Source of the DNA: an uncultured Actinomycetes bacterium
GTDB taxonomy: Bacteria > Actinomycetota > Thermoleophilia > UBA2241
Length of the DNA stretch: 40,000 nt
Reading direction: 5' to 3'
NCBI GenBank assembly: GCA_963760655.1
Contig: CAVXDR010000001.1
Span: 213,007 to 253,006 of the forward strand
Under the pieces are notes generated by a model. The model was not told the origin of the DNA, ran no database searches, and worked only from the letters and a program-made list of their open reading frames with translations. This document shows positions 1,739 through 35,724 of this stretch, piece by piece. Position 1 is the stretch's first letter. Each line of letters starts with the position of its first letter. Both the position numbers and the translations under genes were made by a program.

Positions 1739-1836
1739 CCTTCCCGTGCGCCGCACGAACGCGGCGTCGTCGGCCCCGTCCGCGGCTCGCCGCCGCCGGC
1801 TCCGTCCCGACGGTCTGCTAGCGTAGGACGGGCGCC

Positions 1837-10811: not shown

Positions 10812-12059
10812 CTACGACAGCCAGGGCGGCCGCGGCGCGTCGGGCGGCGGCACGAACGACTGACCCGGCATCGGGTGGAACAGACCCGGCGTGATCGGTA
10901 GCGCGGGGGAGGCTGCCGGCGGGGCTGCGATCGGTTCGGCTGCCGGGTCGGCCTCAACGACAGCCTCGGGAGCCGGCTCGGCCTCAACGACCGCTTCGGG
11001 AGCCGGCTCGGCCTCAACGACCGCTTCGGGAGCCGGCTCGGGCTCGGCGATGACTTCGGGTTCGGCGGCCGCCGGCTCGGGCTCGCTCGTGACCTCTGGG
11101 GTGGGCGCCGGCACGGCCTCGTCGACAGGCCGGTCGGAGGGCTGCGCCTCGGGCTCGGGAGCGGCTTCAGCTTCGGGCTGCGCCGCGGCCTCGACCGCGG
11201 GCTGCGCCTCGGGCTCGGGAACGGCAGCCGCCTCGGGCTCGGCCGCGTGCTGCGCCTCGGGCTCGGGAACGGCAGCCGCCTCGGCGGCGGGCTCGACCGG
11301 CTCGGGGTCGATCGTCTGGGCGGCGACCGGCACGGCCGCGGCCACCGGCACCGCCGCGGCGAGCGGTACGGCAGTGGCGACCGGCGCCTCAGGTGCGGCC
11401 GGCGCGGCGTCGATCGGCAGGGGCGGCAGCGGCAGCGCGGGCGCGTCGTCGGGGGAGCCGAACGCTTCGGGCTCGTGCCCGAGCCCGAGAGAGTCCTCGA
11501 GGTCGGCCAGCGTCTCGCCCGTGCCGGGGGTGTCACCGGTGACGAGCGGCACGCCGATGAACGCCGCGAGCTCGTGGTCGATCGTGCGGTCCTTCGAGCC
11601 TGCGAACATGGCGCCGAGCCCGCTCACGTCCTCGCTCTCGAGCAGGACGGTCGACCCGTCCTTGAGCGCCAGGACGGATGTGTCGCACCGGCGCGTCTGA
11701 CGGTTCCAGAAGCCGTTGCGGTAGGTGCTCTCTGTGGAGTAGCGCTCCTGGTAGGAGACGCAGTCGACGTCGGCGATGGGCACGGCGCGGTCGCGGCCCC
11801 GCAGCACCGACTTGGAGGCGACGGAGATCATGCCCTCGGGCCGGTCGACGGCCACGGTGAGCCGGGTGGCGCTCAGGGCGAGCAGCATGCCCACCGCCGC
11901 GACCAGGGCGCCGATCACGCCGAACAGCGGCTTGCCGTGGCTGAGCGTGAAGCCGACGAAGACGGCGCCGCACACGACCACGACGCCGCCGCCGACCATC
12001 TGGCTGTACGGCGATCGCTGCACCACGAACCGTGAATCGGACTGTTCCAGGATCTTCAT
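10812..12059 (-). CDS. Membrane-anchored protein with a Pro/Glu/Ala-rich repetitive C-terminal tail, unknown function
   Basis: Start chosen at ATG 12059 (MKILEQSD...), preceded by GGGAGGG. There are two N-terminal TM helices (GGGVVVVCGAVFVGFTL, FGVIGALVAAVGMLLAL) and a small globular domain. About 190 aa of EPEA/EPAPEAVV repeats follow. The 107 aa upstream in the listed ORF are rejected. Confidence 0.65.
   Translation of the reverse strand: MKILEQSDSRFVVQRSPYSQMVGGGVVVVCGAVFVGFTLSHGKPLFGVIGALVAAVGMLLALSATRLTVAVDRPEGMISVASKSVLRGRDRAVPIADVDCVSYQERYSTESTYRNGFWNRQTRRCDTSVLALKDGSTVLLESEDVSGLGAMFAGSKDRTIDHELAAFIGVPLVTGDTPGTGETLADLEDSLGLGHEPEAFGSPDDAPALPLPPLPIDAAPAAPEAPVATAVPLAAAVPVAAAVPVAAQTIDPEPVEPAAEAAAVPEPEAQHAAEPEAAAVPEPEAQPAVEAAAQPEAEAAPEPEAQPSDRPVDEAVPAPTPEVTSEPEPAAAEPEVIAEPEPAPEAVVEAEPAPEAVVEAEPAPEAVVEADPAAEPIAAPPAASPALPITPGLFHPMPGQSFVPPPDAPRPPWLS
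10951..11040. repeat. 30-bp tandem repeat, 3 near-identical copies (coding, EAEPAPEAVV units)
   Basis: GCCTCAACGAC(A/C)GC(C/T)TCGGGAGCCGGCTCG occurs at 10951, 10981 and 11011. Looser related repeats continue to about 11290. Confidence 0.85.
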
Positions 12060-12235: not shown

Positions 12236-14674
12236 TCAGCCCGCGTCGTCCGTGGGCCGCCGGCGCGCGCCGGGCAGGGAATCGAGTCGCTTGCGCAGCT
12301 TCTCGTCGTCGGGTTGCGCCGCGCACAGCGCACGCAGCTCGCCGAGCAGCGCGTCGCAGCGCTCGTGCTCGCCGCTCCACGAGGCCTCGCTCAGGCTGTC
12401 GAGGAGGGCCACAGTGAGCCGCTCGTGGAGGGCAGCGTCGCCGGGCGGCGCGGCGTCGAGCTCGCGCAGCTCCTTGAGCAGCGCGTCGCGGTGCACTCGG
12501 TCGCCCTGCCAGAGCGCTTCGCTCAGGCTGCGGGAGAGCGCCTCGCCGAGCTTCTCACGCACGGCGATGTCGCCGGGGTGCACGGCATACAGCGAGCGAA
12601 GCGTCTCGAGCAGCGCGGTCCGCTGCGCGGGGTGGCGCTCGCGGCAGGCCTGCCGTACTGCGTCCACCAGCCCGGCTGCCAGGCGGACACGCACGGTGCG
12701 GTCACCCGGGTGATCGGCGTTCAGCCTGCGCAGCTCGCCGAGCAGGGCGTCCCGGCAGGTCTCGTCGGCTTCGGCGCAGGCTTCGTCCATGCCGTCAAGG
12801 AGCGCGGTCGCTAGCTGGGCGCGTACGGCCGCGTCGCCCGGATGGTCGGCGCACAGCCGGCGCAGGCCCCCGAGGTGCTCGTCTCGGTGGCGGTGGTCGG
12901 CATGCAGACAGGCCTGTTCGACGCTCGCCGCGAGCGCCAGCGCCAGCTGGTCGACCACGGCCGACTCATACGGATGGTCGCGGCACAAACGTCGCAGCTC
13001 CTCGAGCAGGGCGTCGTGGCCCGTCCGGTCACGCGACGTCGACGCGCGGCGCACGCCGTCGGCGAGCGCCTTGGCGAGCTGGTGACGCAGCGCGGGCTCG
13101 TCGAGGTGTCGTTCCACCAGCCCACGCAACTCCCCGAGCAACGCGTCGCTCGTGCCCTCGTCGCCCGCCACGGCGGCGCGGGCCATGGCGGTCCGCAGTG
13201 CCATGCCGACGAGCGCGCCGGCCGCGCTGTGATCGCGCACGGTCGACAGGCCCCAGCCGCGCAGTGCGGAGGGCTCGGGGCAGCCGGCGCGCGATGGGAG
13301 CAAGGCCGCCGCGCCGATGCAGAGTCGCAGCGGCGCGCCCTTGAGCCCCAGGGCGTCGCGGACGTCGAGCAGCGCGGCGAGCGCCGCCGCGGTGACCCGC
13401 GCGTCGGAGTCGCCGTCGACGATGCTGCTGGCCAGGAGCGGCACGATACGGCCGACCTCGTGGCGTGCGATCGTGCGCAGCACGTGCTCGTCGCCCGAGA
13501 GCCAGAGCTCGCGTGCCGCCCGCTGACGCCCCTCGCCGCCGTACGAGGGCACGTCGTCGGAGTCTGTCGCTTCGAGGACGCCGGCCGCCTGAAGCCGCGC
13601 GACGACCCCGGGGTCGAGGCCGGCCGTGAGCGTGTCGGTGAGGACGAGCCACGCCGAGCGGTTCGTCAGGCGCGGCAGCAACGCGAGCCCGGCGAGCAGG
13701 CCTGCCTCGCGCGGCCACGAGCGGCAGTGCTCAAGCAGAAGGGGACGGAGCTCAGGGTAGCGGTCGTGATGGGCGTCGTCGGCGATGCGCTCGAGCTGCT
13801 CGGGCGTGCCGGGCTTGAGCGCGAGCCAGCGGTGCAGCACGGCCGGGCAGCCGTCGAGCAGCTCGAGCGCGTCACCCTGGCCGATGGCGCGCAGGGCCAT
13901 CACCGTGCCGATCAGGGAGCGCATGAGGCGGCGGGCCTCGGCCGGGTCGCTCAGGTCCATGCGTCCGAGTTCGTGAACGTCGGCGGCCGGACCGCCGGCC
14001 CGGCCGCCGAAACGGGTCTTCGCCTCGCCGCGCACAGGGTCGCTCGCGTCGAGGGCGACGACCACACGGCAGCCCGGCGCCTCAGCGGGCCGCTCGAGCA
14101 GGTCGCGCACCGCGACCTCGGCGGGAGCGTCGGCCGCGGTCCAGCCGTCGAGCAGCAGCACGACCGGCCGGTCGTCGGCGACGGTGAGGAGAGAGACCAG
14201 GCCGTGCAGGTCGGCAGCGCTGAGTGGGGCGGGCTCGAGGCCACGTTCGGCAGGAGGCGGGGGTGGGCGCCATGGGCGCCCGGGGACGTCGAGGAGAGGC
14301 GCGGGCAGCACCGCCATGCGCGCCGCCTCGCCTACGTGGGCCAGGCGGGCGGCCGTCTCCGCGTCAGGGTGCTCGAGTGCGAGACGACGCTCGTCGGAGG
14401 CGAGCGCTGTCGCGTAGGCGTCGATCAGGGCACAGGCGGTAAGTTCGGGGCCGTAGAGGTCGGCCTCGGCATACCCGACGACGGCACCCTCGGTGATGAG
14501 CCGCTCGCGGGCCTCCAGGAGCAGCCGGGTCTTGCCGCAGCGTGGCCGGCCGACGAGGACGGTCACACCCGGAGTACGGGCCCGGCTGAGGAGCAGGTCG
14601 AGGTCGGCCGCACGGCCGAAGAACGGTCGCTTGGGCGCTCGGTCCGTGCCGGGCGAGGTGGAAGCATCCCCCAT
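12236..14674 (-). CDS. STAND/ATPase_2-type P-loop NTPase with C-terminal array of seven 44-aa alpha-helical repeats
   Basis: 812 aa. The N-terminus FFGRAADLDLLLSRARTPGVTVLVGRPRCGKTRLLLE (Walker A) and VVLLLDGW (Walker B) are typical of the archaeal-type ATPase/STAND family. The C-terminus has 7 repeats of consensus DALLxELRxLxxxHPGDxAVRxxLAxAL.... Confidence 0.75.
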   Translation of the reverse strand: MGDASTSPGTDRAPKRPFFGRAADLDLLLSRARTPGVTVLVGRPRCGKTRLLLEARERLITEGAVVGYAEADLYGPELTACALIDAYATALASDERRLALEHPDAETAARLAHVGEAARMAVLPAPLLDVPGRPWRPPPPPAERGLEPAPLSAADLHGLVSLLTVADDRPVVLLLDGWTAADAPAEVAVRDLLERPAEAPGCRVVVALDASDPVRGEAKTRFGGRAGGPAADVHELGRMDLSDPAEARRLMRSLIGTVMALRAIGQGDALELLDGCPAVLHRWLALKPGTPEQLERIADDAHHDRYPELRPLLLEHCRSWPREAGLLAGLALLPRLTNRSAWLVLTDTLTAGLDPGVVARLQAAGVLEATDSDDVPSYGGEGRQRAARELWLSGDEHVLRTIARHEVGRIVPLLASSIVDGDSDARVTAAALAALLDVRDALGLKGAPLRLCIGAAALLPSRAGCPEPSALRGWGLSTVRDHSAAGALVGMALRTAMARAAVAGDEGTSDALLGELRGLVERHLDEPALRHQLAKALADGVRRASTSRDRTGHDALLEELRRLCRDHPYESAVVDQLALALAASVEQACLHADHRHRDEHLGGLRRLCADHPGDAAVRAQLATALLDGMDEACAEADETCRDALLGELRRLNADHPGDRTVRVRLAAGLVDAVRQACRERHPAQRTALLETLRSLYAVHPGDIAVREKLGEALSRSLSEALWQGDRVHRDALLKELRELDAAPPGDAALHERLTVALLDSLSEASWSGEHERCDALLGELRALCAAQPDDEKLRKRLDSLPGARRRPTDDAG
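12275..13147 (-). repeat. Coding tandem repeats, period about 132 bp (44 aa), 7 units
   Basis: Repeat starts fall at aa 510, 554, 599, 642, 686, 730 and 774 of the ATPase (counted by hand). The units are diverged at nucleotide level. Confidence 0.7.
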
Positions 14675-14891
14675 GTTGCTTCGCCTCTTGTCGCGACGCT
14701 CGTGACTTCATGGTAGGCCGAAGCGGTTCGCGATTCCATGGGGTCGCCGTTGACTCGAGGCGGACGGCAGGCAGGGAAGGCTAGCCCGGGTGGGGGAGAA
14801 CGTCGGCTCGGCTGTGGCTCACCCGGCGCTCGCCGTTCACGAAGCCGCTCCCTTTCGCGTACCGCGCGGCGGTGATGCTAGGCTCACATGC

Positions 14892-15164
14892 ATGCGCTAT
14901 CGCTACGTCTACTGCCGCTCGTGCGGCGCGAAGCTCTCGGGCCTCGGCTCAGAGATGGACACCGGCCGCTGCCTGCACTGCCTGGCCGAGTCCGGCGTCC
15001 GGCTGCTGGCGTCCGAACGGCAGCGCCTGCGCGAGGAGACGGCCGACTGGGGCGCGCAGAAGGTGGTGCGGCGCTGCGTGCGCTGCCAGGCGGTGCTGTC
15101 GGTCTACAACCTCGAAACCTCGTGCGAGGCCTGCCAGACGAAGGCCCGCGAGGGCGGCGGCTGA
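14892..15164 (+). CDS. Small double zinc-ribbon protein (90 aa)
   Basis: MRYRYVYCRSCGAKL...GRCLHCL ... RRCVRCQAVL...TSCEACQ gives two CxxC...CxxC pairs. Third-position GC bias is strong. It is divergent from the STAND ATPase gene. The start within ORF 14790-15164 is uncertain. Confidence 0.55.
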   Translation: MRYRYVYCRSCGAKLSGLGSEMDTGRCLHCLAESGVRLLASERQRLREETADWGAQKVVRRCVRCQAVLSVYNLETSCEACQTKAREGGG

Positions 15165-15892: not shown

Positions 15893-17659
15893 GTGACCAC
15901 TGCAAGTGACGCAGCCGCCCCGGCTGCGCTTTCCAAGGTCCCCACCGGCATCCGGGGCTTCGACGAGATCACCGAGGGCGGCCTGCCCAAGGGCCGCGTG
16001 TCGCTCGTTGCCGGGGCAGCCGGCAGCGGCAAGACCGTCCTGGCCATGGGCTTTCTGGTCAACGGCGCCGAGCAGTTCAACGAGCCCGGCCTCTTCGTGA
16101 GCTTCGAGGAGACCGCGCGCGACCTCGTGACCAACTTTGCCTCGCAGGGCTTCGATCTCAAGCGCCTGCAGAAGAAGGGGCTGCTTGCCCTCGACCACAT
16201 CCACGTCGAACGCAACGAGCTCGAGGAGACCGGCGACTACGACCTCGAGGGCCTCTTCGTGCGCCTCGGCGCCGAGATCGACGCCATCAAGGCCAAGCGT
16301 GTCGTGCTCGACACGATCGAGGTCCTCTTCTCGGCCTTCACCAACGAGGTGATCGTCCGCAGCGAGATGAAGCGCCTCTTCCAGTGGCTGGCCGACAAGG
16401 GCGTCACGGCGATCGTCACCGGCGAGAGCGGCGAGAAGACCATCACGCGCCACGGCCTCGAGGAGTACGTCGCCGACTTCGTCGTCGTCCTCACCCACCT
16501 GGTGAACGACGAGACGGCCACCCGGCGGCTGCGCATCGTCAAGTACCGCGGCTCGGCGCACGGCACCAACGAGTTCTCGTTTCTGATCGACCGGCGCGGC
16601 GTATCGGTGCTGCCGATCAGCTCGCTGGGCTTGCGTCACGAAGCCCCGACCGAGCGTCTCTCGAGCGGTATCGCGCGCCTCGACGAGATGCTCGGCGGCA
16701 AGGGCATCTACCGGGGCAGCAGCGTACTGGTGAGCGGCACGGCCGGCACCGGCAAGACCTCGATCGCGGCCCACTTCGTCGACGCCGCCTGCCGCCGCGG
16801 CGAGAAGGCGCTGTACTTCGCCTTCGAGGAGTCGCCGGCCCAGATCGCGCGCAACATGGCGTCGATCGGCCTCGACCTGGACCAGTGGCAGAAGAAGGGC
16901 CAGCTGCGCATCCACTCCGAGCGCCCTCAGAACACCGGCCTCGAGATGCACCTCGTGCGCATGAACCGCGAGATCGAGGAGTTCGCGCCCTCGGTCACCG
17001 TCGTCGACCCGATCACCAACCTGACGAGCATCGGCACCTTCTCCTCGATCCGCTCGACCCTGACGCGCATGATCGACGCCATGAAGTCGCGGCAGATCAC
17101 GGCGCTCTTCACCAGCCTGACCGAGGGCGGCGGCAGCCCCGAGGCGACCGACGTCGGCGTCTCCTCGCTCATGGACACCTGGATCCTGCTGCGCAACCTC
17201 GAGGCGGGCGGCGAGCGCACCCGGGGGCTCTACGTGCTCAAGGCGCGCGGCATGGCCCACTCCAACCAGGTCCGCGAGTTCGTGCTCTCTTCGGACGGTG
17301 TCGACCTGCTCGACATCTACGCCGGGGCCGAGGGCTTCCTGACCGGTGCCGCGCGCTCGGTCAAAGAAGCCGAGGAGCGCGCCGACGCCCTGAGGCGCAG
17401 TCGCGCGATCGAAGAAACCGAGCATGAGATCGCGCGAAAGCGTAAGCTCATGGCGGCCGAGCTGGAGAGGCTCAAAGCCCAGTACGAGGTCGAGATCGAG
17501 ACCCTTGAGAACGCCGTCTTTGAGCAGCGCATGAGGCAAGAGGCCGCCGCCTCAGGCAAAGCCGCGGTGCGCGCGGCTCGCGGCGACGGCGGCTCTCGTT
17601 CCGCCGGCAAGAAGTCGGCCGCGCCTCGCCGCGGCTCCGGGCCGAAGGCACGGCCGTGA
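15893..17659 (+). CDS. kaiC: Circadian clock protein KaiC homologue (double RecA/DnaB-like ATPase) with C-terminal coiled-coil extension
   Basis: TGIRGFDEITEGGLPKGRVSLVAGAAGSGKT (CI Walker A) and SGIARLDEMLGGKGIYRGSSVLVSGTAGTGKT (CII Walker A). GVSSLMDTWILL aligns with HISTITDTIILL, the phosphosite region. GTG 15893 is preceded by GGAGG. The C-terminal roughly 100 aa are heptad-like (EERADALRRSRAIEETEHEIARKRKLMAAELERLKAQYEVEIETLEN). Confidence 0.9.
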   Translation: MTTASDAAAPAALSKVPTGIRGFDEITEGGLPKGRVSLVAGAAGSGKTVLAMGFLVNGAEQFNEPGLFVSFEETARDLVTNFASQGFDLKRLQKKGLLALDHIHVERNELEETGDYDLEGLFVRLGAEIDAIKAKRVVLDTIEVLFSAFTNEVIVRSEMKRLFQWLADKGVTAIVTGESGEKTITRHGLEEYVADFVVVLTHLVNDETATRRLRIVKYRGSAHGTNEFSFLIDRRGVSVLPISSLGLRHEAPTERLSSGIARLDEMLGGKGIYRGSSVLVSGTAGTGKTSIAAHFVDAACRRGEKALYFAFEESPAQIARNMASIGLDLDQWQKKGQLRIHSERPQNTGLEMHLVRMNREIEEFAPSVTVVDPITNLTSIGTFSSIRSTLTRMIDAMKSRQITALFTSLTEGGGSPEATDVGVSSLMDTWILLRNLEAGGERTRGLYVLKARGMAHSNQVREFVLSSDGVDLLDIYAGAEGFLTGAARSVKEAEERADALRRSRAIEETEHEIARKRKLMAAELERLKAQYEVEIETLENAVFEQRMRQEAAASGKAAVRAARGDGGSRSAGKKSAAPRRGSGPKARP

Positions 17660-17961
17660 GCGCGACGCTCGATCGCGCCTCGTCGCCGGAGACCTGGCAC
17701 TTGAGGCTCTACATCGCCGGCCAGACGCCGCGCTCGATCGCCGCGCTTGCGAACCTCAACAGGATCTGCCAGGAGAACCTGGCCGGCAAGTACACCTGCC
17801 AGGTCATCGACCTGCTCGAGAACCCGCAACTGGCCAAGGGCGACCAGATCCTCGCGGTGCCCACGCTGGTCAAGGACGTGCCGCCTCCGCTGCGCAAGAT
17901 CATCGGCGACCTCTCCGACACCGAACGCGTGCTGGTCGGGCTCGACCTGCGGCCGGTCTGA
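17656..17961 (+). CDS. kaiB: KaiB (thioredoxin-like clock protein), copy 1
   Basis: LRLYIAGQTPRSIAALANLNRICQENLAGKYTCQVIDLLENPQLAKGDQILAVPTLVK...IIGDLSDTERVLVGLDL. The GTG start overlaps the kaiC stop (GTGA). Confidence 0.9.
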   Translation: MSATLDRASSPETWHLRLYIAGQTPRSIAALANLNRICQENLAGKYTCQVIDLLENPQLAKGDQILAVPTLVKDVPPPLRKIIGDLSDTERVLVGLDLRPV

Positions 17962-18314
17962 TGGCCAAGCGGGCTGCGCTTGGCGGGGAGAGGTCGCTCG
18001 AAGAGCGCCTGGCCGATGCCGCGGCCGCGCCGGGCGAGGGGCGCTACGTGCTGCGCCTCTACGTGACCGGCCAGACGCCGCGCTCGCTGCGCGCCATCCA
18101 GAACATCAGGCGCATCTGCGAGGAGCACCTGAGCGGCCGCTACGACCTCGAGGTGATCGACATCTACCAGCGACCGAGCCTCGCCAAGGGAGAGAAGATC
18201 ATCGCGGCGCCCACCCTGGTCAAGAGTCTGCCGGCGCCCATCCGGCGCTTCGTCGGCGACCTCTCCGACACCGAGAAGGTCCTTTTCGGGCTCGACCTCG
18301 TTCCCAGGGAGTAG
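17961..18314 (+). CDS. kaiB: KaiB, copy 2 (with N-terminal extension of about 25 aa)
   Basis: LRLYVTGQTPRSLRAIQNIRRICEEHLSGRYDLEVIDIYQRPSLAKGEKIIAAPTLVK...FVGDLSDTEKVLFGLDL. The ATG overlaps the stop of copy 1 (TGATG). Confidence 0.9.
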   Translation: MAKRAALGGERSLEERLADAAAAPGEGRYVLRLYVTGQTPRSLRAIQNIRRICEEHLSGRYDLEVIDIYQRPSLAKGEKIIAAPTLVKSLPAPIRRFVGDLSDTEKVLFGLDLVPRE

Positions 18315-18340
18315 GTCGGGAGCACCCCCAGGCGCACACG

Positions 18341-20506
18341 ATGGCGATGCGGATGGAAAGTCAGCAGGAACTGCTCCGCGAGATCGAGGAGCTGACCCGC
18401 AGGCTGCAGGAGGCCGAGGACACCCTCGAGGCGATCCGCAGCGGCGCCGTCGACGCGCTCGTGGTCACAAGCCCGCAGGGCGGCGAGCAGCTCTTCACCT
18501 TAGACGGCGCCGACCGCGTCTACCGCGTCTTTCTCGAGTCGGTCAGCCAGGGGGCGCTCACGCTCGACCGCGACGGCACGATCCTCTATGCGAACGCCGC
18601 CGCGGCGCGGCTCCTGCCTGTCGGCGCGGGCCTCATCGGCACGAGCCTGCGAACCTGCGTGCGCCGCGACGAGCGTGACTTCTTCGACGCCGTCTTCGAT
18701 GCCGGCAGGCGCGGCGAGACGAGCGCCGAGATCCGCCTGCGGGGCAGGACCGGGGGCCGGCCCGTCTATCTGTCGCTGCGTCTCGTGGAGGATCGCGGCG
18801 ACCAGATGATCGTGGCCGTGCTCACCGACCTCACCGACAGAAAGAAGACCGAGGAGGTGCTCAGGGCGGAGCGGCTCGCCCGCTCCATTCTCGAGCAGAC
18901 CGGCGAGGCGATCCTGGTCTGCGACCGTGACGGCACGATCGTGCGCGCCAGCCGGGCGGTCGCCAAGCTCGCCGGCCAGAACCCGGTCTTGCGGGCCTTC
19001 GCCGACGTCCTGCCTCTGCAGAGCGACGGTCGCCGGCGCTTCTCGCTTACCCGGCGGGCGAACGCCCCGCGGACGCGCGGCCTCGAGGTCCACTTCGAGC
19101 GCTCCGACGGAGCCTCGTTCGACCTGATCCTGAACGCAGACCCGCTGCGCGGCGAGGACCGTGCCCCGCTCGGCACGATCGTCACCTTGACCGACGTCAC
19201 TCGCCTCAAACAGGCCGAGCAGGCCAGGGAGGAGCTGTTGCGCGCGGTCGAGCAGGCCAACAGGGAGCTTGCCGCGATCGAGTCGCTCTCGGTCGCCGGC
19301 CTGGGGCTGGCCAACCTCGATCAGCTCGTGCACTCGATCGTCAGCCAGACGGCGCTGGCGATGGGCGCCGACCGAGCGACGCTCCTGCTGGCCAGGGGCT
19401 CCCGCCTCGAGTCGGTGGCGCGCGTGCCGCCGCTGGAGGCGAACGACCACTTCTCCCTGCCGATCGGCAGCGGCTTTGCCGGCACCATCGCCAAGCTGCG
19501 CCGCAGCCTCTTCGTGGCCGACGTGAGAGCGAGCCAGCTCGTCAAGCGCGAGACCCTCAGGCGTCAGACGGGCTCGTTGCTCGGGGCTCCCATGATCGAC
19601 CGCGACGAATGTCTCGGGGTGCTGCACGTCGGTTGGAAGGCGCGGCACGAGGCCGACGTTCGTCAGCAGCGCTTTCTCGAGATCATCGCGCAGCGCGCCG
19701 CGGCGCTCATCGCGGCCCGCATGATGACCGAGGAGCTCGACGAGCAGCGACTGGCCGCCGAGTCGGCCGCCCGCGAGAACGCGCGGCTTTTCGAGGAGCA
19801 GCAGCGCATCGCGATCGTGCTGCAGAGCAACCTGATCCACCCGATGCCGGCGGTCGCCGGCCTCGACCTGGGCGTGGTTTCGGACGCCGCCAACAAGCCC
19901 GAGCTCGTGGGCGGCGACCTGAGCGACGTCTTCGTCGTCGACGACAGCCATGTCATGGTGCTCATCGCCGACGTCGCCGGCAAGGGCATCCACGCCGCCG
20001 GCCTGACCGAGACGGTGCGCAGCACGGTGCGGGCCCTGGCCGCGATCGACCCGGCCCCGGCGTTCGTGCTGGGCAAGACGAGCGAGCTGCTGCTGCGCTT
20101 CGACCCCGACGAACCCCACGTGACGGCCTTTCTCGCGGCGATCGACCCGCGCACGGGCCACGTGGGCTACGCCAGCGCCGGCCATCCCGCGCCGCTCCAC
20201 CTGAGCGCGACCACGTGTCACCCGCTGCGCGTGCGCTTTGGTCCGCCGCTCGGTTCCTTCGTGCGGCCCTACGCGAGCAGTCACATTATGCTTTCGCTCG
20301 ACGATTACCTGGTCTTCTACACCGACGGCGTCACCGAGGCCCGCCGTGACGGCGAGTTGCTCGGCGAGCAGCGCCTGGTAGAGATCGTCTCGAGTCTGCG
20401 GGGCCGCTCCGCCCAGCAGGTCGCCGAGGCGGTGCGCACCGCCGCCCTCGAGTTTGCCGGACGGCTGCAGGACGACCTCGAGGTGGTGGCGTTGCGGCTG
20501 GCGTAG
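18341..20506 (+). CDS. Coiled-coil/PAS-PAS-GAF-PP2C (SpoIIE/RsbU-type) serine phosphatase
   Basis: ATG 18341 lies 27 nt after kaiB2. PAS cores: GALTLDRDGTILYANAAAARLL and EAILVCDRDGTIVRASRAVAKLAG. GAF: ALAMGADRATLLLARG...LGVLHVGW. PP2C motifs: GGDLSDVFVVDD, VLIADVAGKGIHAA, YASAGHPAP, LVFYTDGVTEA. The upstream part of listed ORF 17747- is off-frame through kaiB. Confidence 0.85.
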   Translation: MAMRMESQQELLREIEELTRRLQEAEDTLEAIRSGAVDALVVTSPQGGEQLFTLDGADRVYRVFLESVSQGALTLDRDGTILYANAAAARLLPVGAGLIGTSLRTCVRRDERDFFDAVFDAGRRGETSAEIRLRGRTGGRPVYLSLRLVEDRGDQMIVAVLTDLTDRKKTEEVLRAERLARSILEQTGEAILVCDRDGTIVRASRAVAKLAGQNPVLRAFADVLPLQSDGRRRFSLTRRANAPRTRGLEVHFERSDGASFDLILNADPLRGEDRAPLGTIVTLTDVTRLKQAEQAREELLRAVEQANRELAAIESLSVAGLGLANLDQLVHSIVSQTALAMGADRATLLLARGSRLESVARVPPLEANDHFSLPIGSGFAGTIAKLRRSLFVADVRASQLVKRETLRRQTGSLLGAPMIDRDECLGVLHVGWKARHEADVRQQRFLEIIAQRAAALIAARMMTEELDEQRLAAESAARENARLFEEQQRIAIVLQSNLIHPMPAVAGLDLGVVSDAANKPELVGGDLSDVFVVDDSHVMVLIADVAGKGIHAAGLTETVRSTVRALAAIDPAPAFVLGKTSELLLRFDPDEPHVTAFLAAIDPRTGHVGYASAGHPAPLHLSATTCHPLRVRFGPPLGSFVRPYASSHIMLSLDDYLVFYTDGVTEARRDGELLGEQRLVEIVSSLRGRSAQQVAEAVRTAALEFAGRLQDDLEVVALRLA

Positions 20507-26708: not shown

Positions 26709-26760
26709 TGGAGTTGGAGTTGACCCGCTTTCGTTGACACCCTGAAAGTGGACACCAGCG

Positions 26761-27063
26761 GTGTCCGAGAAGGGAGTCAGCGTGGCGTACACGCCGGAGT
26801 TTCGGAGCGAGGCGGTCAGGCTGTACCGCGTCGGCGGACGTGGGGTCAAGGTGACGGCGCAGCAGATCAGCGTCGCGCCCGGCACCTTGCGCAAGTGGGT
26901 CCACCAGGCCGAGATCGACGAGGGTATCGAGGACGGCCTGACCAGCGAGGAGCGTGCCGAGCTGCGGCGCCTCAGGCGTGAGGTGAGGATCTTAGAAGAG
27001 GAGAAGGAGATCCTGCGCAAGGCAGCGCTTTTCTTCGCCCGGGAGACCGATCGTCGGCGATGA
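26761..27063 (+). CDS. IS3-family transposase OrfA (HTH + leucine zipper)
   Basis: [13 protein letters not shown]...[16 protein letters not shown]...[33 protein letters not shown] is the typical IS3/IS911 OrfA. Confidence 0.85.
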
Positions 27064-27950: not shown

Positions 27951-28028
27951 TTCGCAGGTATCAACGGAACTGGGGCAACTCCATCACGGGAAATCGCGGA
28001 AAATGCGCCGTCAATTCCCGGAATACTA

Positions 28029-29069: not shown

Positions 29070-29897
29070 TCAGGCCAGCCGCAGGACGACCACCTGCATG
29101 TCGTCTCTCAGGCGGCCGTCGGCGAACTCGGATGCGGCGTCCCGCACGCCATCGGTGACCTCCTGCGCGGAGCAGCCACGTAGACCCTCGACGATCTCGA
29201 GCAGCCGCCGCTCTCCGAGCAGCTCGCCGTCGCGGCGTGCTTCGGTGACGCCGTCGGTATAGAGCACGAGGCAGTCTTCGGGCGTCAGCATCGTGTGGGA
29301 CTCTTTGTAGGAGTGCGAGAAGGTGCCAAGCGGCGGACCGTAGACCACAGCGAGGGAGTCGCACGTATTCGCGCCGAGGTGGACTGGCGCGGGATGACCG
29401 GCGCTCGCGTAGCTCAGATGGCCGGTGTGCGGGTCGAGCACGGCGCAAAAGGCGGTCACGTGGGCCTCGTCGGGATCGTAGCCCAGGAGCAGCTCGCTGG
29501 TCTTCCCCAAGATGAAGGACGGCGACGGGTCGATCGCGGCCAGTGCCCGCACCGTGCTGCGCACGGTCTCGGTCAGGCCGGCGGCGCGCACGCCCTTGCC
29601 GGCAACATCGCCGATCAGCAGGACGACGTGCGACTCGTCGCCGACGAAGACGTCGCTGAAGTCGCCGCCCACGAGCTCGGGCTCGAAGGCGGTCTTTGTC
29701 ACCATGCCCAGCTCGAGGCCGGCGACCGCGGGCAGCGCGTGAAGGAAGTTCTCCTGCAGCGTTGTGGCGATGCGCTCCTGCTCTTCGTAGAGGCGGGCGT
29801 TGGCAAGGGCCGTCGAGATCGAGGCGGCAAGCTTGCCGGCGAACTCGACGATCTCCGGCGGGAAGGCGACGGCCGCCTCGTGGTGGTTGAAGAAGAT
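29070..29897 (-). pseudogene. 3' segment (end of GAF + PP2C phosphatase domain) of the giant sensor gene split by the IS66-family insertion
   Basis: It reads FFNHHEAAVAFPPEIVEFAGKLAASISTALANARLYEEQ... then PP2C motifs GGDFSDVFVGDE, LLIGDVAGKGVRAA, YASAGHPAP and LVLYTDGVTEA. It joins in frame to 31460-35296 once the IS and one TSD copy are removed. Confidence 0.85.
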
Positions 29898-31451
29898 GTA
29901 AGCGTTCAGTTGGTCCGGCCATGCAGCTGAGCAAGAGGCCGAGGGCCATGAGGCAGGCACCTGCTTCTGCGCAGCGAACCCTCGGCCATGGAGCGCGCCG
30001 AGGCGGAGGCGATCTACGACCAGGGACGCGAGGCGGTGGTCGCGGCGCTCCTCGCGCTCTCGGCTCAGGTCGCCGCCCTGGAGGCGCGCCTTGCCAAGCA
30101 GGAGGAGCGCATCGCCGAGCTTGAGCGACAGCTCAGGCGCAACTCGCAGAACTCCTCGCTGCCACCGAGCGCCGATCCGCCTGGGGCGCCGGCCCGCAGG
30201 CGGCCACCATCCTCAGGCGGCAGACGCGGCGCCCAGCACGGTCACAAGGGCCACGGCCGACACCTGGCCCCGATCGAGGCCGTCGACGAGCTCATCGATC
30301 ACTGGCCCGAGCACTGCGCCTGCGGCCACCGCTTCACCCCGGAAGAGCGTCACCCCGTTGGCAACCCGGCCCGATGGCAGGTCGCCGAGCTGCCCGCGAT
30401 CGCCATCACCTTAAGCGAGCACCGCCTCCATCGCCTGCGCTGCCCCGCCTGCGGTGCGATCACCCGCGCAAAGCTGCCCGCGGATGTGCCAGAGAGCGCC
30501 TTCGGCCCGCGCCTGTGCGCGGCGGTCGCCACCCTGGCCGTGCGCAACCGCGTCTCCCGGCGCGATGCGGTCGAGCTGGCCGGCGAGCTGTTTGGCGCCC
30601 GCCTCTGCGCCGGCACGGTCGATGCCATCCTGCGGCGCGCGGCGGCGGCGCTTGCCAGGCCCTACGAGGAGCTGCTGCACGAGACCCGTGCCTCGCCCGC
30701 CGTCAACGTCGATGAGACCGGCTGGCGCCTGCGCGGCGGGCGGCGCACCCTCTGGGGCGCTCTCACGCTTCGGACCGCGGTCTTTCGCATCGCCGCCGAC
30801 CGCCACGAGCGCGAGGCCGTGGCCCTGCTCGGCGAGCGCTTCGCAGGGATCACCTGCAGCGATCGCTGGTGGGCCTACAACTACCTGGATGTGGAACGGC
30901 GCCAGCTCTGTTGGGCGCACCTGACCCGCGACTTTCGGGCACACAGCGAGGGCCTCGGCCTGCAGAGGCAGTTCGGCGAGGCTGGCCTTGCGATCAGCGA
31001 GCGTCTCTTCGCCGCCTGGGGCGACTACCGGCTCGACGGCGACCGCGAACGCCTCGCGGCGCGCATCGGGCCCCTCAAGGAGGAGCTGCGGGCGCTGCTT
31101 GAGGAAGCGGCGCACAAGAGCCCCCGCAACCGCCAGCACCGCACCTTCGCCAAGAACCTGCTCAAGTGCTGGCCGGCGCTGTGGACCTTCGCCAGCGTGC
31201 CCGGCGTGGAGCCCACCAACAACCAGGCCGAGCGCGGGTTGCGTGGCGCGGTCATCTACCGCAAGCTCTCGCTGGGCAGCCAGTCCGAGGACGGCGAGCG
31301 TACCATCGAGCGGCTGCTCTCGGCCTCGGTGACCTGCCGCCTGCAGAAGCGCTCGCTCTTTGCCTACCTCAGCGAGGTCCTGGCCGCCAGCGCCCGCGGC
31401 GATCCCGTCCCCTCACTGGTCTGACCGAGTGCACACCGACTGAACGCTTAC
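29898..31451 (+). mobile_element. IS66-family insertion sequence, single-ORF (ISBst12-like) type, 1554 bp
   Basis: The inverted termini are GTAAGCGTTCAGTTGGT (29898-) and the reverse complement of ACCGACTGAACGCTTAC (-31451). They are flanked by a perfect 8-bp direct repeat AAGAAGAT (29890-29897 and 31452-31459). Confidence 0.9.
29988..31424 (+). CDS. IS66-family transposase (TnpC-like)
   Basis: The N-terminal leucine zipper is LSAQVAALEARLAKQEERIAELERQL. The Zn-finger region is HCACGHRF...RLRCPACG. It also has DETGWR, CWAHLTRDF and NNQAERGLRGAVIYRKLSLGSQSEDG motifs. Confidence 0.9.
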   Translation: MERAEAEAIYDQGREAVVAALLALSAQVAALEARLAKQEERIAELERQLRRNSQNSSLPPSADPPGAPARRRPPSSGGRRGAQHGHKGHGRHLAPIEAVDELIDHWPEHCACGHRFTPEERHPVGNPARWQVAELPAIAITLSEHRLHRLRCPACGAITRAKLPADVPESAFGPRLCAAVATLAVRNRVSRRDAVELAGELFGARLCAGTVDAILRRAAAALARPYEELLHETRASPAVNVDETGWRLRGGRRTLWGALTLRTAVFRIAADRHEREAVALLGERFAGITCSDRWWAYNYLDVERRQLCWAHLTRDFRAHSEGLGLQRQFGEAGLAISERLFAAWGDYRLDGDRERLAARIGPLKEELRALLEEAAHKSPRNRQHRTFAKNLLKCWPALWTFASVPGVEPTNNQAERGLRGAVIYRKLSLGSQSEDGERTIERLLSASVTCRLQKRSLFAYLSEVLAASARGDPVPSLV

Positions 31452-34400
31452 AAGAAGATGACGCCGAGCACCTCTTCTCTGACGATCAAGGGGATGCACA
31501 GCACGGAGCGCACCCCGAAGCGACGCTGCACCTCGGGGAGGCAGCGCGGGTCGCTTTCGCAGTCGTCGATGGCGATCGGCCGGCGCTCGGTCACGGCCAT
31601 GACCATGAAGGGCGCCTCGTCGGTGCGCACGCATTCGTGGATCAGCCCGGGGACCTCGGGATAGCCGTACTCGGCCACCCAGTCGTCGCCGTGGCGCAGC
31701 GCGACCATGGCGCTGTCGGATCCGACCGCGGCGACCGCATGCTCGACGACCGTCTGCATGATCTCGCGGCTATCGAGCGTCGAGTTGATCAGGCCGTTCA
31801 TCTCGTTTAAGACCTCGGTCAGCTCGGCCGCCGCGGCCTCACGCTCGGCGCGCTCGTGCAGCTCATCACGTTGGGTCGACAGCTCCTCACCGGCCGCCTG
31901 CAGCTCCTCGGTCTGCAGCTGGAGTCTCCGAGCGAGCTCCTCGACGCGCGCTTGCTCGGCGAGTTGGGCCTCGCGAGCGGCGTCGGCGCGAACCAGGGCG
32001 ACCGCGGCCGCGCGACGACGCTCGGCCTGCTCGCTTAGGGTCTTGGCGAGAAAGCCGGAGAGCAGGCCAGCCGCCACCCAGACCGCCGTCGATATCAGCG
32101 TCGTTGGTACGGTGGACAGGCTGCCCCGCCCGCCCACCGTCAGGTAGAACGCCCCGCCACCGGCGATGGCCACGAGCGCACCGAAAGGCGGGCCCGCCAG
32201 GGCGCCGGCGATGACTGAGAACAGCGCGATCATGGAGCCTGGCAGGCCCAAGACGTGGCGCGGGCTATGTGCGCTGTTCAGCGCCAGGAGGATCGCACTC
32301 TGGATCGCGATCGCACCGGCGAGCACGCGCCAACGATGGCCTCGGAAGCGGTCCACAAGCCGAGTGGTGCGGCTCCCCGGCAGGTGCTCGTCAAGCCGTG
32401 CGGCCTCGGTCTCGCGCTCGAGCAGCGCGCGCTCGGCTTGCTTACGGGCGCTGATGTCGGTCACAAACGAGCGGTAGTGCAGGAGTGTGCCGTCCTCGTC
32501 GAAGATCGGCTGCACGAGCAGCTCGATCGGCACGCGGCTGCCGTCCTTGCGCAGGTACTCCTTCTCGTAGGACACAGGGTGGCGTTCGCTCACCGCCCGC
32601 GCGAGGATCGTTGCCTCGGTCGCGCGCCACTCGGGCGGCGTCAGGTCGGTCGACCAAGTGAGCGCTCTCTCGTGAAGCTCGGCGCCGCTGTAGCCCGTCA
32701 GCCGCTCGAAGGCTTCGTTGAACAGAAGGAGACGACCATCGGGCGCTCCCATCCCGAAGGGCATCGCGGACTTCTGCAGCACATCGGCCAGGAGATGGGC
32801 GTTCTCCTCGCTCTCGCGCAGCGCCTCTTCGGCGCGCTTACGCTCGGTGATGTCGCGGTTGGACTCAAGGACGCGCTCGACTCCGTCTTCGCCCACCACG
32901 AGCTGAAGCCGCGATGCTACGGTGACTTGGCGGCCGTCCTTGGCGCGGTGGACAAGCTCTCCCTCCCAGCTCTCCCGTGTGTGGAGGGCGTCTTCGATTG
33001 TGGCCCACGGTTGCGGGAAGGCGGTGCGCAACAGGTCGCGAGTGACTCGGCCGATCGCCTCTTCTACACCGTAGCCGTAGAGCTGCTCGGCGCCACGATT
33101 CCAAGACTCGATCGCACCGCCGAGACGCCAGACGATGATGGGCTCGAAGGACAGGTCGAGCAGCTCGGCTTGGCGCTTGGCTTCCTGCTCGGCCAAGGTG
33201 CGCTCAGTGGTGTCGATGAACACCGTCGCGAAGCGTCCCGGCTCGGTCTGGTAGGCGCTCACCTCAAACCAGCGCCCCAGCGGTCCGAACTGCGACTCGA
33301 AGTGAGCCGGCTCGCCGGTCAGGGCCACCTTGCCGTAGATCTCAAACACCGGGTCGTCGGCGGCATCGGGGAAGAGCTCAAGCGTGGTGTGCCCCAGGAT
33401 GTCTGCGGCCTTTAAGCCCGTGTGGCGCTCGAAGGCGGGGTTGACCGAAAGGTAGCGCAGATCGTAGGGCTTGCCGTTCTCGTCGCAGATGATCTCGTCG
33501 AGGGCGAAGCCCTCGCTCATCGTGTCGAATAGGGTGCGGTAGCTCCCCTCACTCTCAAGCAGCGCCTCCTCGGCGCGTTTGAGGTCCGTGACGTCGTTGC
33601 CGATCGCCAGGATCTCAGCAACCTTGCCTTGGTCGTCAAGGATCGCCCGATTGGTCCAGTTCAGCCAGAGGCGACGGCCGTCCCGGCAGATGTTCTCGTT
33701 GGTGTTGTGCTCGTAGCGGTCGGGGTGCTTGACGATGTCGCTGACGAGGCCGGTCGGGTCAGTCCCGTCCGACTCCTGCTCTGGAACCAGGATGTTCACC
33801 GACTTGCCGACGGCCTCCTTGGCACTCCAGCCGAAGAGCCTCTGGGCGTACCCGTTGATGAAGGTGATCCTGCCGTCACAAGACCACCGCACGATCGCGC
33901 TGTTGGCGTTCTCCACGAGCTCACGGTAGCGACTCTCGCTACGCCGCAGGGCCTCCTCTGCTGCCTTGCGCTCGGTGACGTCGCTGTGCATGATCAGGTT
34001 CGCGATGTGGTTGCCTTGGGCGTCGAGGAGGGGAGACGCACTGTAGCGCGACCACAGAACCGCGCCGTCCTTGCGGCGCAGCTTGACCTCGCGGCGCAGC
34101 ACCTGGCCCTCATGAAGTTCGGCCCGTGCGTCGTCGGTTTCGGGCTTCCAACCTTCAAAGACGAGGTCGGAACCGGACATGCCGAGCAGCTCCTCGACTG
34201 AGTAGCCCAGCATGTCGGCCATGCGCTGGTTGGCAAACTGAAAGGCCCCCTCTGGCGCGCCGATGACGATGCCCTCGGTCGAGTTCTCGACCATGGCGCG
34301 GTACTTGGCCTCGCTCGCCCGGAGAGCCGCAAAGTACTGCTCGCGCTCCTCCTCGATGCGCTTACGCTCGCTGATCTCGTGGCCGAAGACGCTGACGCCT

Positions 34401-35296
34401 GAAGAGGTCGGGTAGAAGCGCGCCTCGATCCAGTCGCCTGAGATCTCAGTCTGGTACTCGAGCATCGAGAAGCGTCCCAGCTCGATCGCCTCGCGGAGGG
34501 CCTTACCCTCGACCGAGTCGCCCAGGGTCGGGGCGAACTCCCAGACGGACCTACCGATGAGCTCCTCGCGACTGCTACGCAGGAGGCGCAGGGCAGCCTC
34601 GTTGAGGTGTTGGTAGCGGTACTCCCAATCGATCACCATGACGAACTCGTCGACCTCGTCGAGCAAAGCTTGCCCGCGGGACTCGCGCTCGCCGGCAGCA
34701 CCGCCGCCATAGGTCTCGAAGGGGATGCCCTCCGGAATGGAGGGCTTACAGCGCGCTTCGGCGTGTCGCGTCATGCGCACCTCGAGGCCACCGTCAACGC
34801 TCAGTTTCAACGAGTCCATGAGCTTGGCGACGATGAACAGGCCGCGGCCGTGGTCGGACAGGACATCGGGCACAGAGTCACGATCGAAGCTCGTTACGTC
34901 GAAGCCTCGGCCGTGGTCTTTGACCACGGCGAGCAGGTCGCCGTTGACGAAGCGCAGCGAGATCTCGATGTCGTGCTCGCTGCCGCTGTGACGGATGGCG
35001 TTGGTCGCGGCCTCCTCGACGCAAAGCACGACGTCGTCGATGACCTCGGGCTCGGTGCAGTACTGGCGCAGGTAGTCACGAATGCGGTCGCGGGCGCGCA
35101 GCAGGTGGGAGGGCTCGGACGGGACGCGGAAGAGCAGGCGCGGTGGCGCGATCTGAGGCTTAACGTCGCTCTGCGACAACTGACTCCCCCGCACGGGCTT
35201 GCTTCGAGGGGAACGAATGGCGCTCAGTGTACGCCGAAGGTACAGGAAGTTGCGACCGTTCCAGGCCTCGAACAACCTTTGTGATGAGTCGCACAA
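31448..35296 (-). CDS. 5' segment of giant sensor: RsbW/SpoIIAB-like Ser kinase (HATPase_c) + 6 PAS + about 4 TM + coiled coil + GAF (interrupted; stop supplied by the IS66 end)
   Basis: The N-terminus has VLCVEEAATNAIRHSG...VKDHGRGFD...DHGRGLFIVAKLMD. Six PAS cores each end in a D(V/I)TERK-type linker. The TM block is RWRVLAGAIAIQSAILLAL...AVWVAAGLLSGFLA. The GAF runs MQTVVEHAVAAVGSDSAMVAL...VLGVIF. The terminal TAA lies inside the IS terminus GCTTAC. The true start may be the TTG at 35179, preceded by GGGGGAG. Confidence 0.85.
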   Translation of the reverse strand: MCDSSQRLFEAWNGRNFLYLRRTLSAIRSPRSKPVRGSQLSQSDVKPQIAPPRLLFRVPSEPSHLLRARDRIRDYLRQYCTEPEVIDDVVLCVEEAATNAIRHSGSEHDIEISLRFVNGDLLAVVKDHGRGFDVTSFDRDSVPDVLSDHGRGLFIVAKLMDSLKLSVDGGLEVRMTRHAEARCKPSIPEGIPFETYGGGAAGERESRGQALLDEVDEFVMVIDWEYRYQHLNEAALRLLRSSREELIGRSVWEFAPTLGDSVEGKALREAIELGRFSMLEYQTEISGDWIEARFYPTSSGVSVFGHEISERKRIEEEREQYFAALRASEAKYRAMVENSTEGIVIGAPEGAFQFANQRMADMLGYSVEELLGMSGSDLVFEGWKPETDDARAELHEGQVLRREVKLRRKDGAVLWSRYSASPLLDAQGNHIANLIMHSDVTERKAAEEALRRSESRYRELVENANSAIVRWSCDGRITFINGYAQRLFGWSAKEAVGKSVNILVPEQESDGTDPTGLVSDIVKHPDRYEHNTNENICRDGRRLWLNWTNRAILDDQGKVAEILAIGNDVTDLKRAEEALLESEGSYRTLFDTMSEGFALDEIICDENGKPYDLRYLSVNPAFERHTGLKAADILGHTTLELFPDAADDPVFEIYGKVALTGEPAHFESQFGPLGRWFEVSAYQTEPGRFATVFIDTTERTLAEQEAKRQAELLDLSFEPIIVWRLGGAIESWNRGAEQLYGYGVEEAIGRVTRDLLRTAFPQPWATIEDALHTRESWEGELVHRAKDGRQVTVASRLQLVVGEDGVERVLESNRDITERKRAEEALRESEENAHLLADVLQKSAMPFGMGAPDGRLLLFNEAFERLTGYSGAELHERALTWSTDLTPPEWRATEATILARAVSERHPVSYEKEYLRKDGSRVPIELLVQPIFDEDGTLLHYRSFVTDISARKQAERALLERETEAARLDEHLPGSRTTRLVDRFRGHRWRVLAGAIAIQSAILLALNSAHSPRHVLGLPGSMIALFSVIAGALAGPPFGALVAIAGGGAFYLTVGGRGSLSTVPTTLISTAVWVAAGLLSGFLAKTLSEQAERRRAAAVALVRADAAREAQLAEQARVEELARRLQLQTEELQAAGEELSTQRDELHERAEREAAAAELTEVLNEMNGLINSTLDSREIMQTVVEHAVAAVGSDSAMVALRHGDDWVAEYGYPEVPGLIHECVRTDEAPFMVMAVTERRPIAIDDCESDPRCLPEVQRRFGVRSVLCIPLIVREEVLGVIFL

Positions 35297-35349
35297 GCTT
35301 GACCGAGGCCCTTACGGCGCGGAGACTGGCGACAACGATCGGGTAGCTG

Positions 35350-35724
35350 ATGGAGTACGAGGTGGCAGACAGTCCGCAGTTCCAGGTCGAGCTCAGTAGG
35401 CCCAGCGCCGACGTCGCCGTCGTTGAGCTGAAGGGCGAGGTCGATCTCTACACCTCGCCTCAGTTCAAGGACGCTCTCTTGCAGGCCATCGGCGAAGGGA
35501 CCGCGCGCGTCGTTGTTGACTTAAGCCAGGTTCGCTTCATCGACTCGACAGGGCTCGGCGTCGTGGTCGGCGGCATCAAGGCGGTCACGGCTCGTGGCGG
35601 CACCCTCGACCTCGTCTGCCCCGAGGGGCGCATCAGGCGCACTTTCGAGATTACGGGTCTGGACCGAATCGTACACATCCACCACTCGCGCAGCGACGCG
35701 CTGGCGGCTACCTCGGGGGACTAG
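35350..35724 (+). CDS. STAS-domain anti-sigma-factor antagonist (SpoIIAA/RsbV-like)
   Basis: VAVVELKGEVDLYTSPQFKDALLQAI...VVVDLSQVRFIDSTGLGVVVGGIK...GTLDLVCPEGRIRRTFEITGLDRI carries the conserved DSTGLG phospho-Ser motif. An alternative start is GTG 35362. It is divergent from the giant kinase/phosphatase gene. Confidence 0.85.
   Translation: MEYEVADSPQFQVELSRPSADVAVVELKGEVDLYTSPQFKDALLQAIGEGTARVVVDLSQVRFIDSTGLGVVVGGIKAVTARGGTLDLVCPEGRIRRTFEITGLDRIVHIHHSRSDALAATSGD

Follow-up and report, generated by a model that had tools for sequence, protein, structure and literature searches.

How is the state of a KaiBC timer passed on when a phosphatase, and not a histidine kinase, is encoded behind the kai genes? 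The question is raised by an operon at positions 15893–20506 of a 40,000-nucleotide (nt) stretch of DNA from an uncultured Actinomycetes bacterium of the class Thermoleophilia; the whole stretch is called the window here. Four tightly packed genes on the + strand encode KaiC, two KaiB proteins and a PAS-PAS-GAF protein that ends in a SpoIIE/RsbU-type PP2C phosphatase domain. An initial annotation had proposed that the timer is wired to this Ser/Thr phosphatase in place of the usual PAS histidine kinase. Our favoured reading, held with moderate confidence, is that the operon encodes a KaiA-independent timer of the KaiC2 type, the hourglass kind known from Rhodobacter sphaeroides, and that one Thermoleophilia-like lineage swapped the histidine-kinase transmitter for a SpoIIE/RsbU-type PP2C.

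The operon and its KaiC

The four-gene cluster that had been proposed is borne out by the gene coordinates and by matches to Pfam and NCBIfam models. The features of the operon are as follows (aa, amino acids).

15893..17659, + strand: kaiC, 588 aa, two-domain, assigned to the KaiC2 / Rhodobacter sphaeroides type (PF06745, NF006799; best PDB match 8DBA)
17162..17167, + strand: codons of Ser424-Ser425, the predicted phosphorylation pair (alignment to R. sphaeroides S413/S414; alignment A3)
17345..17581, + strand: C-terminal helix of KaiC, residues 485–563, predicted coiled-coil stalk (AlphaFold2 model; ungapped alignment to the crystallised R. sphaeroides coiled coil)
17582–17656, + strand: disordered basic tail of KaiC (AlphaFold2 model)
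17656..17961, + strand: kaiB copy 1 (kaiB1), 101 aa, canonical-type KaiB (PF07689, 90.5 bits; best PDB match 8FWJ_M)
17961..18314, + strand: kaiB copy 2 (kaiB2), 117 aa, diverged paralog with a DIYQ signature (PF07689, 91 bits)
18341..20506, + strand: sensor phosphatase gene, 721 aa, with leader helix, PAS, PAS, GAF, long linker helix and SpoIIE-type PP2C (Pfam; AlphaFold2)
18341..19240, + strand: N-terminal module of the sensor, residues 1–300, kaiB/kaiC-linked across phyla, presumed reader of the Kai state (alignment A1; locus survey)
19658..19834, + strand: long linker helix, residues 440–498, holding the putative domain-swap breakpoint (homology limits; AlphaFold2 model)
19940..20500, + strand: SpoIIE/RsbU-type PP2C catalytic domain, residues 534–720 (PF07228, 140 bits)

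The kaiC gene starts with GTG, and GGAGG is located 5 bases upstream. The kaiC and kaiB1 genes overlap by 4 nt (GTGA), and kaiB1 and kaiB2 overlap by 1 base (TGATG). The translational coupling read earlier from these two junctions is confirmed by the junction sequences. The gap between kaiB2 and the phosphatase gene, given earlier as 27 nt, is 26 nt, as the ATG is at 18341 and not at 18342. A promoter scan found nothing, and a terminator scan, at the background level overall, gave no terminator-like site on the + strand inside the operon; both scans are uninformative in DNA of about 70% guanine-cytosine (GC) content, as in the window.

The window KaiC matches PF06745 twice (365.7 bits) and NF006799 with 709.8 bits (cut-off 408). 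Against TIGR02655, the equivalog model of the cyanobacterial KaiC, it scores 358.9 bits, which is below the cut-off of 546.25, and the RadA and DnaB models are far under their cut-offs. The CI and CII tandem RecA-like ATPase domains carry GSGKT/FEE and GTGKT/FEE, and the residues E72/E73, K47/K288 and E312/E313 show little or no variation in alignment A3. Among solved structures, the R. sphaeroides KaiC (8DBA) is the best match, with 590 bits over residues 12–555, reaching through the coiled coil; the Synechococcus elongatus KaiC gives about 342 bits. NCBI/ENA contains a protein of 588 aa (P0001) with the same sequence as the window KaiC.

Ser424 and Ser425 in GVSSLMDTW align with S413 and S414 in GLSSLMDGW of R. 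sphaeroides, and both are invariant in the 48 KaiC relatives of alignment A3. The phosphorylation pair is Ser-Thr in KaiC1 and KaiC3 and Ser-Ser in KaiC2 (PMC10076222, PMC5520375). The KaiC2 clade is described by Ser-Ser phosphosites together with a C-terminal extension of about 50 aa (Pitsawong et al., PMC10076222), and the Ser-Ser criterion is likewise given by Schmelling et al. (PMC5520375). According to the AlphaFold2 model, made with a 48-sequence alignment, residues 485–563 form one continuous helix, with predicted confidence (pLDDT) of about 78–87 over 490–550. A home-made heptad count of the tail is weak (5–6 of 8 a/d positions), and the coil call is instead based on the modelled helix and on how the region aligns to the crystallised coil. 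The Ser-Ser pair at the position of the cyanobacterial Ser-Thr pair, the C-terminal extension and the likeness to the R. sphaeroides protein, all noticed at first reading, are thus upheld. By these sequence features, the window KaiC belongs to the KaiC2 / R. sphaeroides type.

Variants of KaiC that lack the coil (about 490 aa, about 80% identical to the window KaiC) are encoded in the loci L002, L006, L015 and L016, as seen at the kaiC 3' ends. They stay translationally coupled to kaiB and are found with both kinase and PP2C partners. In R. sphaeroides, the C-terminal coiled coil is reported to pair two hexamers and to permit autophosphorylation without KaiA (PMC10076222), with which the coil-less KaiC does not easily fit. 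A tie between the coiled-coil extension and the PP2C output was also considered and was rejected, as coil-less KaiC accompanies PP2C in L015, L016 and the P0132 contig.

The sensor phosphatase and the putative output slot

The fourth protein contains PAS, PAS, GAF and SpoIIE domains according to Pfam, and the SpoIIE match covers 191 of the 192 positions of PF07228. The metal-binding motifs of PP2C, GGDLSD, DVAGKG, YTDG and DD, are all present as read in the alignments. The closest solved relative of the PP2C domain is Rv1364c, which we take to be an RsbU-like multidomain regulator of Mycobacterium tuberculosis. The homology to kinase-type sensors stops near residue 493: residues 5–493 are shared with HisKA_3 kinases at 52–58% identity. 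Residues 470–721 are 69% identical to the PP2C part of a paralog located elsewhere in the window; in the PAS regions, the identity to this paralog is only about 25%. In the AlphaFold2 model, the long helix 440–498 joins the GAF domain to the effector. According to this split homology, the fourth protein is a chimera, in which residues 1 to about 493 come from a Kai-linked sensor (leader helix, PAS, PAS, GAF) and residues 470–721 from a PP2C of the partner-switching type, with the junction in the helix 440–498. A gene of the paralog type is likely the donor type for the PP2C domain.

The N-terminal module of about 300 residues consists of a leader helix, LQEAEETLxAIRSGxVDALVV, followed by the two PAS domains. 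It recurs at the extreme N-terminus of many sensors with about 40% identity (alignment A1). A HMMER search with the module against 1.84 billion representatives gave 17,688 proteins at E <= 1e-30, and the module is N-terminal in nearly all matches. Among the best 150 of these 17,688 representatives, PP2C is found only in the window's own cluster, P0126.

Metagenome contigs were scanned with the module, which gave 80 loci; the 61 loci with more than 700 base pairs (bp) of upstream sequence are informative about the preceding gene. A kaiB gene lies directly upstream of the module in 60 of the 61 (two copies in 57, one copy in 2 and three copies in 1), and kaiC is upstream in all 29 module loci with more than 2.8 kilobases (kb) of upstream sequence. 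The sole informative locus with no kaiB upstream of the module (L032, 2356–5874) carries an HD-GYP domain. The output ends were tallied in 57 loci with at least 190 residues past the module. HATPase_c is present in 40 (with HisKA in 34, HisKA_2 in 2 and HisKA_3 in 2), a receiver in 9, HD-GYP in 4, and a sigma-54 activator, GGDEF and SpoIIE in 3 each. All three surveyed loci with a SpoIIE end are close relatives of the window. The outputs other than kinases that were found behind kaiC-kaiB-kaiB include the following.

L023, L029, L031: sigma-54 enhancer-binding outputs
L058, L076, L085: HD-GYP outputs
L039, L040, L074: GGDEF(-EAL) outputs

The slot accepts DNA-binding sigma-54 activators and cyclic di-GMP (c-di-GMP) enzymes, which are not possible inputs to KaiC. 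Based on this, we infer that the fourth gene is an output of the KaiBC timer. The idea that PP2C stands in place of the usual PAS histidine kinase agrees with the finding that the kinases of the relatives share the same PAS-PAS(-GAF) N-terminus. A survey of kaiBC with SpoIIE/PP2C genes had been suggested as a check; among the loci found with the module, SpoIIE is present in 3 of 57. Judged from these sequences, the PP2C output is real, conserved within its clade and rare, and appears in a small clade of Thermoleophilia-like bacteria only.

The same arrangement of kaiC-kaiB-kaiB-sensor is also found in a 9.3-Mb genome (L009). In the cultured Geobacter sp. DSM 9736 (L092, 6001–10563), kaiC-kaiB-kaiB and a PAS kinase gene are located between gyrB and gyrA, beside dnaA-dnaN-recF.

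A search of genome contigs with a single KaiC gave three loci only, which suffice to name the lineage but are too few for a survey. Closest are uncultured metagenome-assembled genomes of Thermoleophilia / Actinomycetes. The four-gene order with PP2C is also present in L001, L004, L005, L007/L008, L010, L015, L016 and the P0132 contig. L001 has a KaiC 83% identical to that of the window and a phosphatase that is 70% identical along its whole length. The PAS-GAF-SpoIIE architecture is shared by about 14 clusters at 90% identity (P0126–P0138 and P0141), which are 53–95% identical to the window protein.

In the sister operons L002, L003 and L006, kaiC-kaiB-kaiB is followed by a HisKA_3/HATPase_c kinase. 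These Thermoleophilia operons have the same gene order as the window operon, and theirs are the HisKA_3 sensors that are 52–58% identical to the window sensor up to about residue 493. KaiC is about 81–83% identical in L002 and L006, and KaiB1 and KaiB2 are 75–80% and 77–86% identical, respectively, in L002 and L003. They differ from the window operon in the kinase output, near which L006 also encodes a GerE-type response regulator, and in a KaiC without the coiled-coil extension. In L003 (7912–9568), the kaiB copies are intact (80–86% identical), and kaiC is 37% identical and split into separate open reading frames (ORFs); this could be due to nanopore frameshifts or to a decaying kaiC.

For both window KaiBs, the PF07689 match spans 81 of 82 positions and scores about 90 bits. 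Against the R. sphaeroides KaiB (8FWJ_M), KaiB1 scores 111 bits and KaiB2 106 bits. The two copies are 51% identical to each other, and the N-terminus of copy 2 is 16 residues longer; the divergence and the N-terminal extension noted at first reading are therefore correct. The tandem duplication had also been called unusual, which does not hold, as 57 of the 61 informative metagenome loci carry two copies that fall into position-specific orthologous groups. Two complete kaiB genes are present in 67 loci, and without exception the first copy is the better match to the window KaiB1 and the second copy to the window KaiB2. In a group comparison, the first copies are 63% and 58% identical to the R. 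sphaeroides and Anabaena KaiB, respectively, and the second copies 54% and 50%. According to this match of copy to position, the kaiB duplication is, at the level of sequence, one of ancient, position-specific paralogs, and is the norm for this operon family. The second paralog appears to be unremarked in the papers found, and it is missing from the only characterised KaiC2 system, that of R. sphaeroides.

Partner switching and alternative readings

The target of the phosphatase may be approached through the paralog and its surroundings, which contain the following features.

29073..29896, − strand: C-terminal part of the paralog (end of GAF and PP2C), likely PP2C donor type (PF07228, 153 bits; 69% identity to residues 470–721)
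29897..31451, + strand: IS66-family insertion splitting the paralog (DDE_Tnp_IS66; terminal repeats GTAAGCGTTCAGTTGGT, inverted, GTAAGCG...; 8-bp target duplication AAGAAGAT)
31460..35311, − strand: N-terminal part of the paralog, with RsbW-like HATPase_c_2, about six PAS domains and the start of GAF (Pfam)
35347..35724, + strand: STAS gene of the anti-sigma-factor antagonist type, motif DSTGLG, divergent from the paralog (PF01740, 83 bits)

The STAS gene and the RsbW-like domain of the disrupted paralog are located 9–15 kb from the kai operon. A STAS gene and a paralogous PP2C had both been placed 15 kb away; the STAS gene stands at that place, whereas the paralogous PP2C ORF (29073–30212, minus strand) is only about 8.6 kb from the operon. 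In two relatives (L015, 4483–4773; L016, 4328–4491), an rsbW-like gene (HATPase_c_2) begins within the stop codon (TTGGCTGA) of the kai-linked PP2C gene, and the rsbW-like gene of L016 appears frameshifted. In the P0132 contig, kaiC is closely preceded by a STAS gene. The earlier hint of a STAS/partner-switching pathway gains circumstantial support from the paralog context, the rsbW overlap and the P0132 STAS gene, and the wiring itself is read from these neighbours. With the kinase end replaced by a PP2C, the timer probably controls a stress sigma-factor switch instead of a two-component pathway. More weakly, the PP2C may act on a phosphorylated STAS antagonist, because its nearest paralog is in an RsbW-like/STAS setting, because of the genes in L015, L016 and the P0132 contig, and because of the relationship to Rv1364c. 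No sigma factor of the partner-switching module was identified.

The favoured reading can be set out as a series of steps. When ATP is abundant, KaiC would autophosphorylate. The R. sphaeroides KaiB binds the phosphorylated, post-hydrolysis KaiC and speeds dephosphorylation as ATP:ADP drops (PMC10076222); likewise, at a falling ATP/ADP ratio, KaiB bound to this state of the window KaiC would hasten its dephosphorylation. The N-terminal module of the sensor would read the state of KaiC/KaiB, possibly with the second KaiB paralog as an adaptor. The linker helix would carry the signal and toggle the PP2C on or off. The active PP2C would then remove the phosphate from a phospho-STAS anti-sigma-factor antagonist, and an alternative sigma factor would be freed from an RsbW-like kinase. 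The net effect would be that the timer state is converted to a transcriptional response with no two-component phosphotransfer.

A wider model can be proposed only tentatively. Non-cyanobacterial KaiC2 systems may share a plug-and-play output, which consists of two ancient KaiBs, the second being the adaptor, and a leader-PAS-PAS reader, to which kinase, c-di-GMP, sigma-54 or PP2C effectors are attached; in the PP2C-bearing soil actinobacteria, a metabolic or daily hourglass would gate a partner-switching sigma-factor cascade. If true, this would be the first link of a Kai timer to a regulatory logic of the general-stress type.

Several points weigh against the favoured reading. Co-transcription of the four genes, cycling of KaiC, binding of the sensor to KaiB or KaiC, and the substrate of the phosphatase are all inferred. 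The PP2C part of the AlphaFold2 model has low confidence, with a shallow alignment. The search for kaiA covered the window only, where the 32 ORF translations scanned gave no match to a KaiA family. In the window, the kai operon has no STAS or rsbW gene next to it, and STAS genes are also near the kinase-type operons L003 and L006, so that their proximity is not specific to PP2C. The IS66 element sits in the GAF domain of the RsbW-like-PAS-GAF-PP2C paralog, which, judged from this disruption, is inactivated in the window genome. In addition, the PAS-PAS module has a weak likeness to the heme/oxygen sensors DosP and FixL, and it may sense a ligand instead of Kai proteins or besides them.

This last point leads to the best surviving alternative, in which the PAS-PAS-GAF protein is an input sensor of oxygen, redox or a metabolite that entrains KaiBC, and the PP2C acts on an unrelated target. 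The heme-PAS oxygen sensors DosP and FixL are the nearest solved relatives of the module, the R. sphaeroides kinase has been suggested in the literature to pass a redox signal to KaiBC, and the additional GAF domain fits a sensory role. However, the same slot also holds c-di-GMP enzymes and a sigma-54 enhancer-binding protein that has a DNA-binding domain, which suit an output better, and the linkage of the module to kaiB, seen in 60 of 61 loci, points to the Kai proteins as physical partners more than to generic sensing. We consider this alternative unlikely, and the input and output roles are not mutually exclusive.

Alternatively, the PP2C may act back on Ser424/425 of KaiC or on a KaiB, and thereby reset or tune the timer. 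Both phosphosites of KaiC2 are serines, which are acceptable substrates of PP2C, the PP2C is encoded in the kai operon itself, and the window has no adjacent STAS gene. However, the homologous slots hold kinases, c-di-GMP enzymes and sigma-54 activators, which are incapable of dephosphorylating KaiC, and the PP2C domain is 69% identical to one in an RsbW-like/STAS context. In R. sphaeroides, moreover, KaiC dephosphorylates itself, accelerated by KaiB, and no separate phosphatase is involved (PMC10076222). Such feedback is judged quite improbable.

That the operon is a non-clock KaiC-like or RadA-type ATPase system, or a defence island merely resembling Kai genes, is effectively refuted and hardly credible: mobile elements and a Cas1 fragment are present within the window and PADLOC gave a weak local mad8 match (45 bits, 50 residues of the P-loop region), but this is the only PADLOC match, RadA and DnaB models fail as described above, KaiC exceeds its curated cut-off by 300 bits and its alignment with the clock protein of R. 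sphaeroides runs from end to end, and the KaiBs score about 105–111 bits against solved KaiB structures.

Other features of the window are as follows. A full-length match to the class A bacterial RNase P RNA (255.6 bits) is located at 353–742 (+), and an AddB/AddA-like pair, a PD-(D/E)XK nuclease followed by a UvrD-type helicase-nuclease, at 1822–8651 (+). Overlapping tandem repeats with periods of 18–60 nt are located at 10928–11385 in a 580-codon minus-strand ORF with no family match, which probably encodes a repetitive low-complexity protein. Just upstream of kaiC, a large STAND-like NTPase with AAA_16 and TPR-like repeats (12236–14674, −) and a small zinc-ribbon protein with four CxxC motifs (14790–15164, +) are encoded; these two genes are not conserved beside the operon in L001–L003 and have no PADLOC match. 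An IS3-family element (26746–27950; HTH_Tnp_1 and rve ORFs) abuts the ORF 27951–29054, of which the first 158 residues or so match the C-terminal half of Cas1 only (profile positions 142–267). Judged by this partial match, the ORF resembles a CRISPR adaptation gene that has been cut short; the tandem-repeat scan showed no CRISPR array.

Comparison with known systems

The cyanobacterial KaiABC system with SasA and CikA is compared here from established knowledge. SasA binds KaiC via its own KaiB-like domain, and CikA binds KaiB via a pseudo-receiver. As in the operon described here, a signalling enzyme would read the KaiC/KaiB state and relay it to transcription. In the window operon, however, the leader-PAS-PAS module is the presumed reader, a second KaiB has a gene of its own, and the putative output is a Ser/Thr phosphatase, whereas phosphotransfer to RpaA is used in cyanobacteria.

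The phosphatases RsbU, RsbP and SpoIIE and the regulator Rv1364c share with the fourth protein a SpoIIE-family PP2C that has all the metal-binding motifs and follows sensory domains and a helical linker. In the window, a close paralog carries an RsbW-like domain in the same protein and is divergent from a STAS gene. To our knowledge, none of the known RsbU/RsbP/SpoIIE phosphatases is encoded with Kai proteins or proposed to be under their control. No paper linking KaiC with PP2C, SpoIIE or partner switching was found, and nothing relevant was found on kaiBC with an HWE kinase; these searches mostly did not cover subscription journals, so that they are no proof. If the favoured reading is true, it would tie Kai timing to the partner switching of sigma factors in non-phototrophic soil bacteria. 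The PP2C version predicts a simple and assayable read-out, dephosphorylation of a STAS protein; a further lead open to testing is the conserved second KaiB paralog.

The closest known system is the hourglass of R. sphaeroides (Cereibacter; Pitsawong et al. 2023; 8DBA, 8FWI, 8FWJ). The two-domain KaiC with Ser-Ser and a C-terminal extension, here a predicted coiled coil, is common to both, KaiB copy 1 resembles the R. sphaeroides KaiB, and, as far as the window shows, kaiA is absent in both. The HWE kinase encoded past kaiC-kaiB in R. sphaeroides shares the leader-PAS-PAS N-terminus with the window protein (33% over 288 aa). This hourglass was characterised biochemically without its output; the leader-PAS-PAS N-terminus is a concrete candidate for the reader, and this module is joined to at least five types of effector in nature. 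The two systems differ in that one kaiB and an HWE histidine kinase are present there, whereas two KaiBs, an extra GAF domain and PP2C are present here. Moreover, R. sphaeroides is a purple bacterium, whereas the window belongs to an actinobacterial lineage of non-phototrophic appearance. The comparison supports the view that the KaiC2-type KaiBC system is a known one, and that its version with a putative PP2C output is a new variation.

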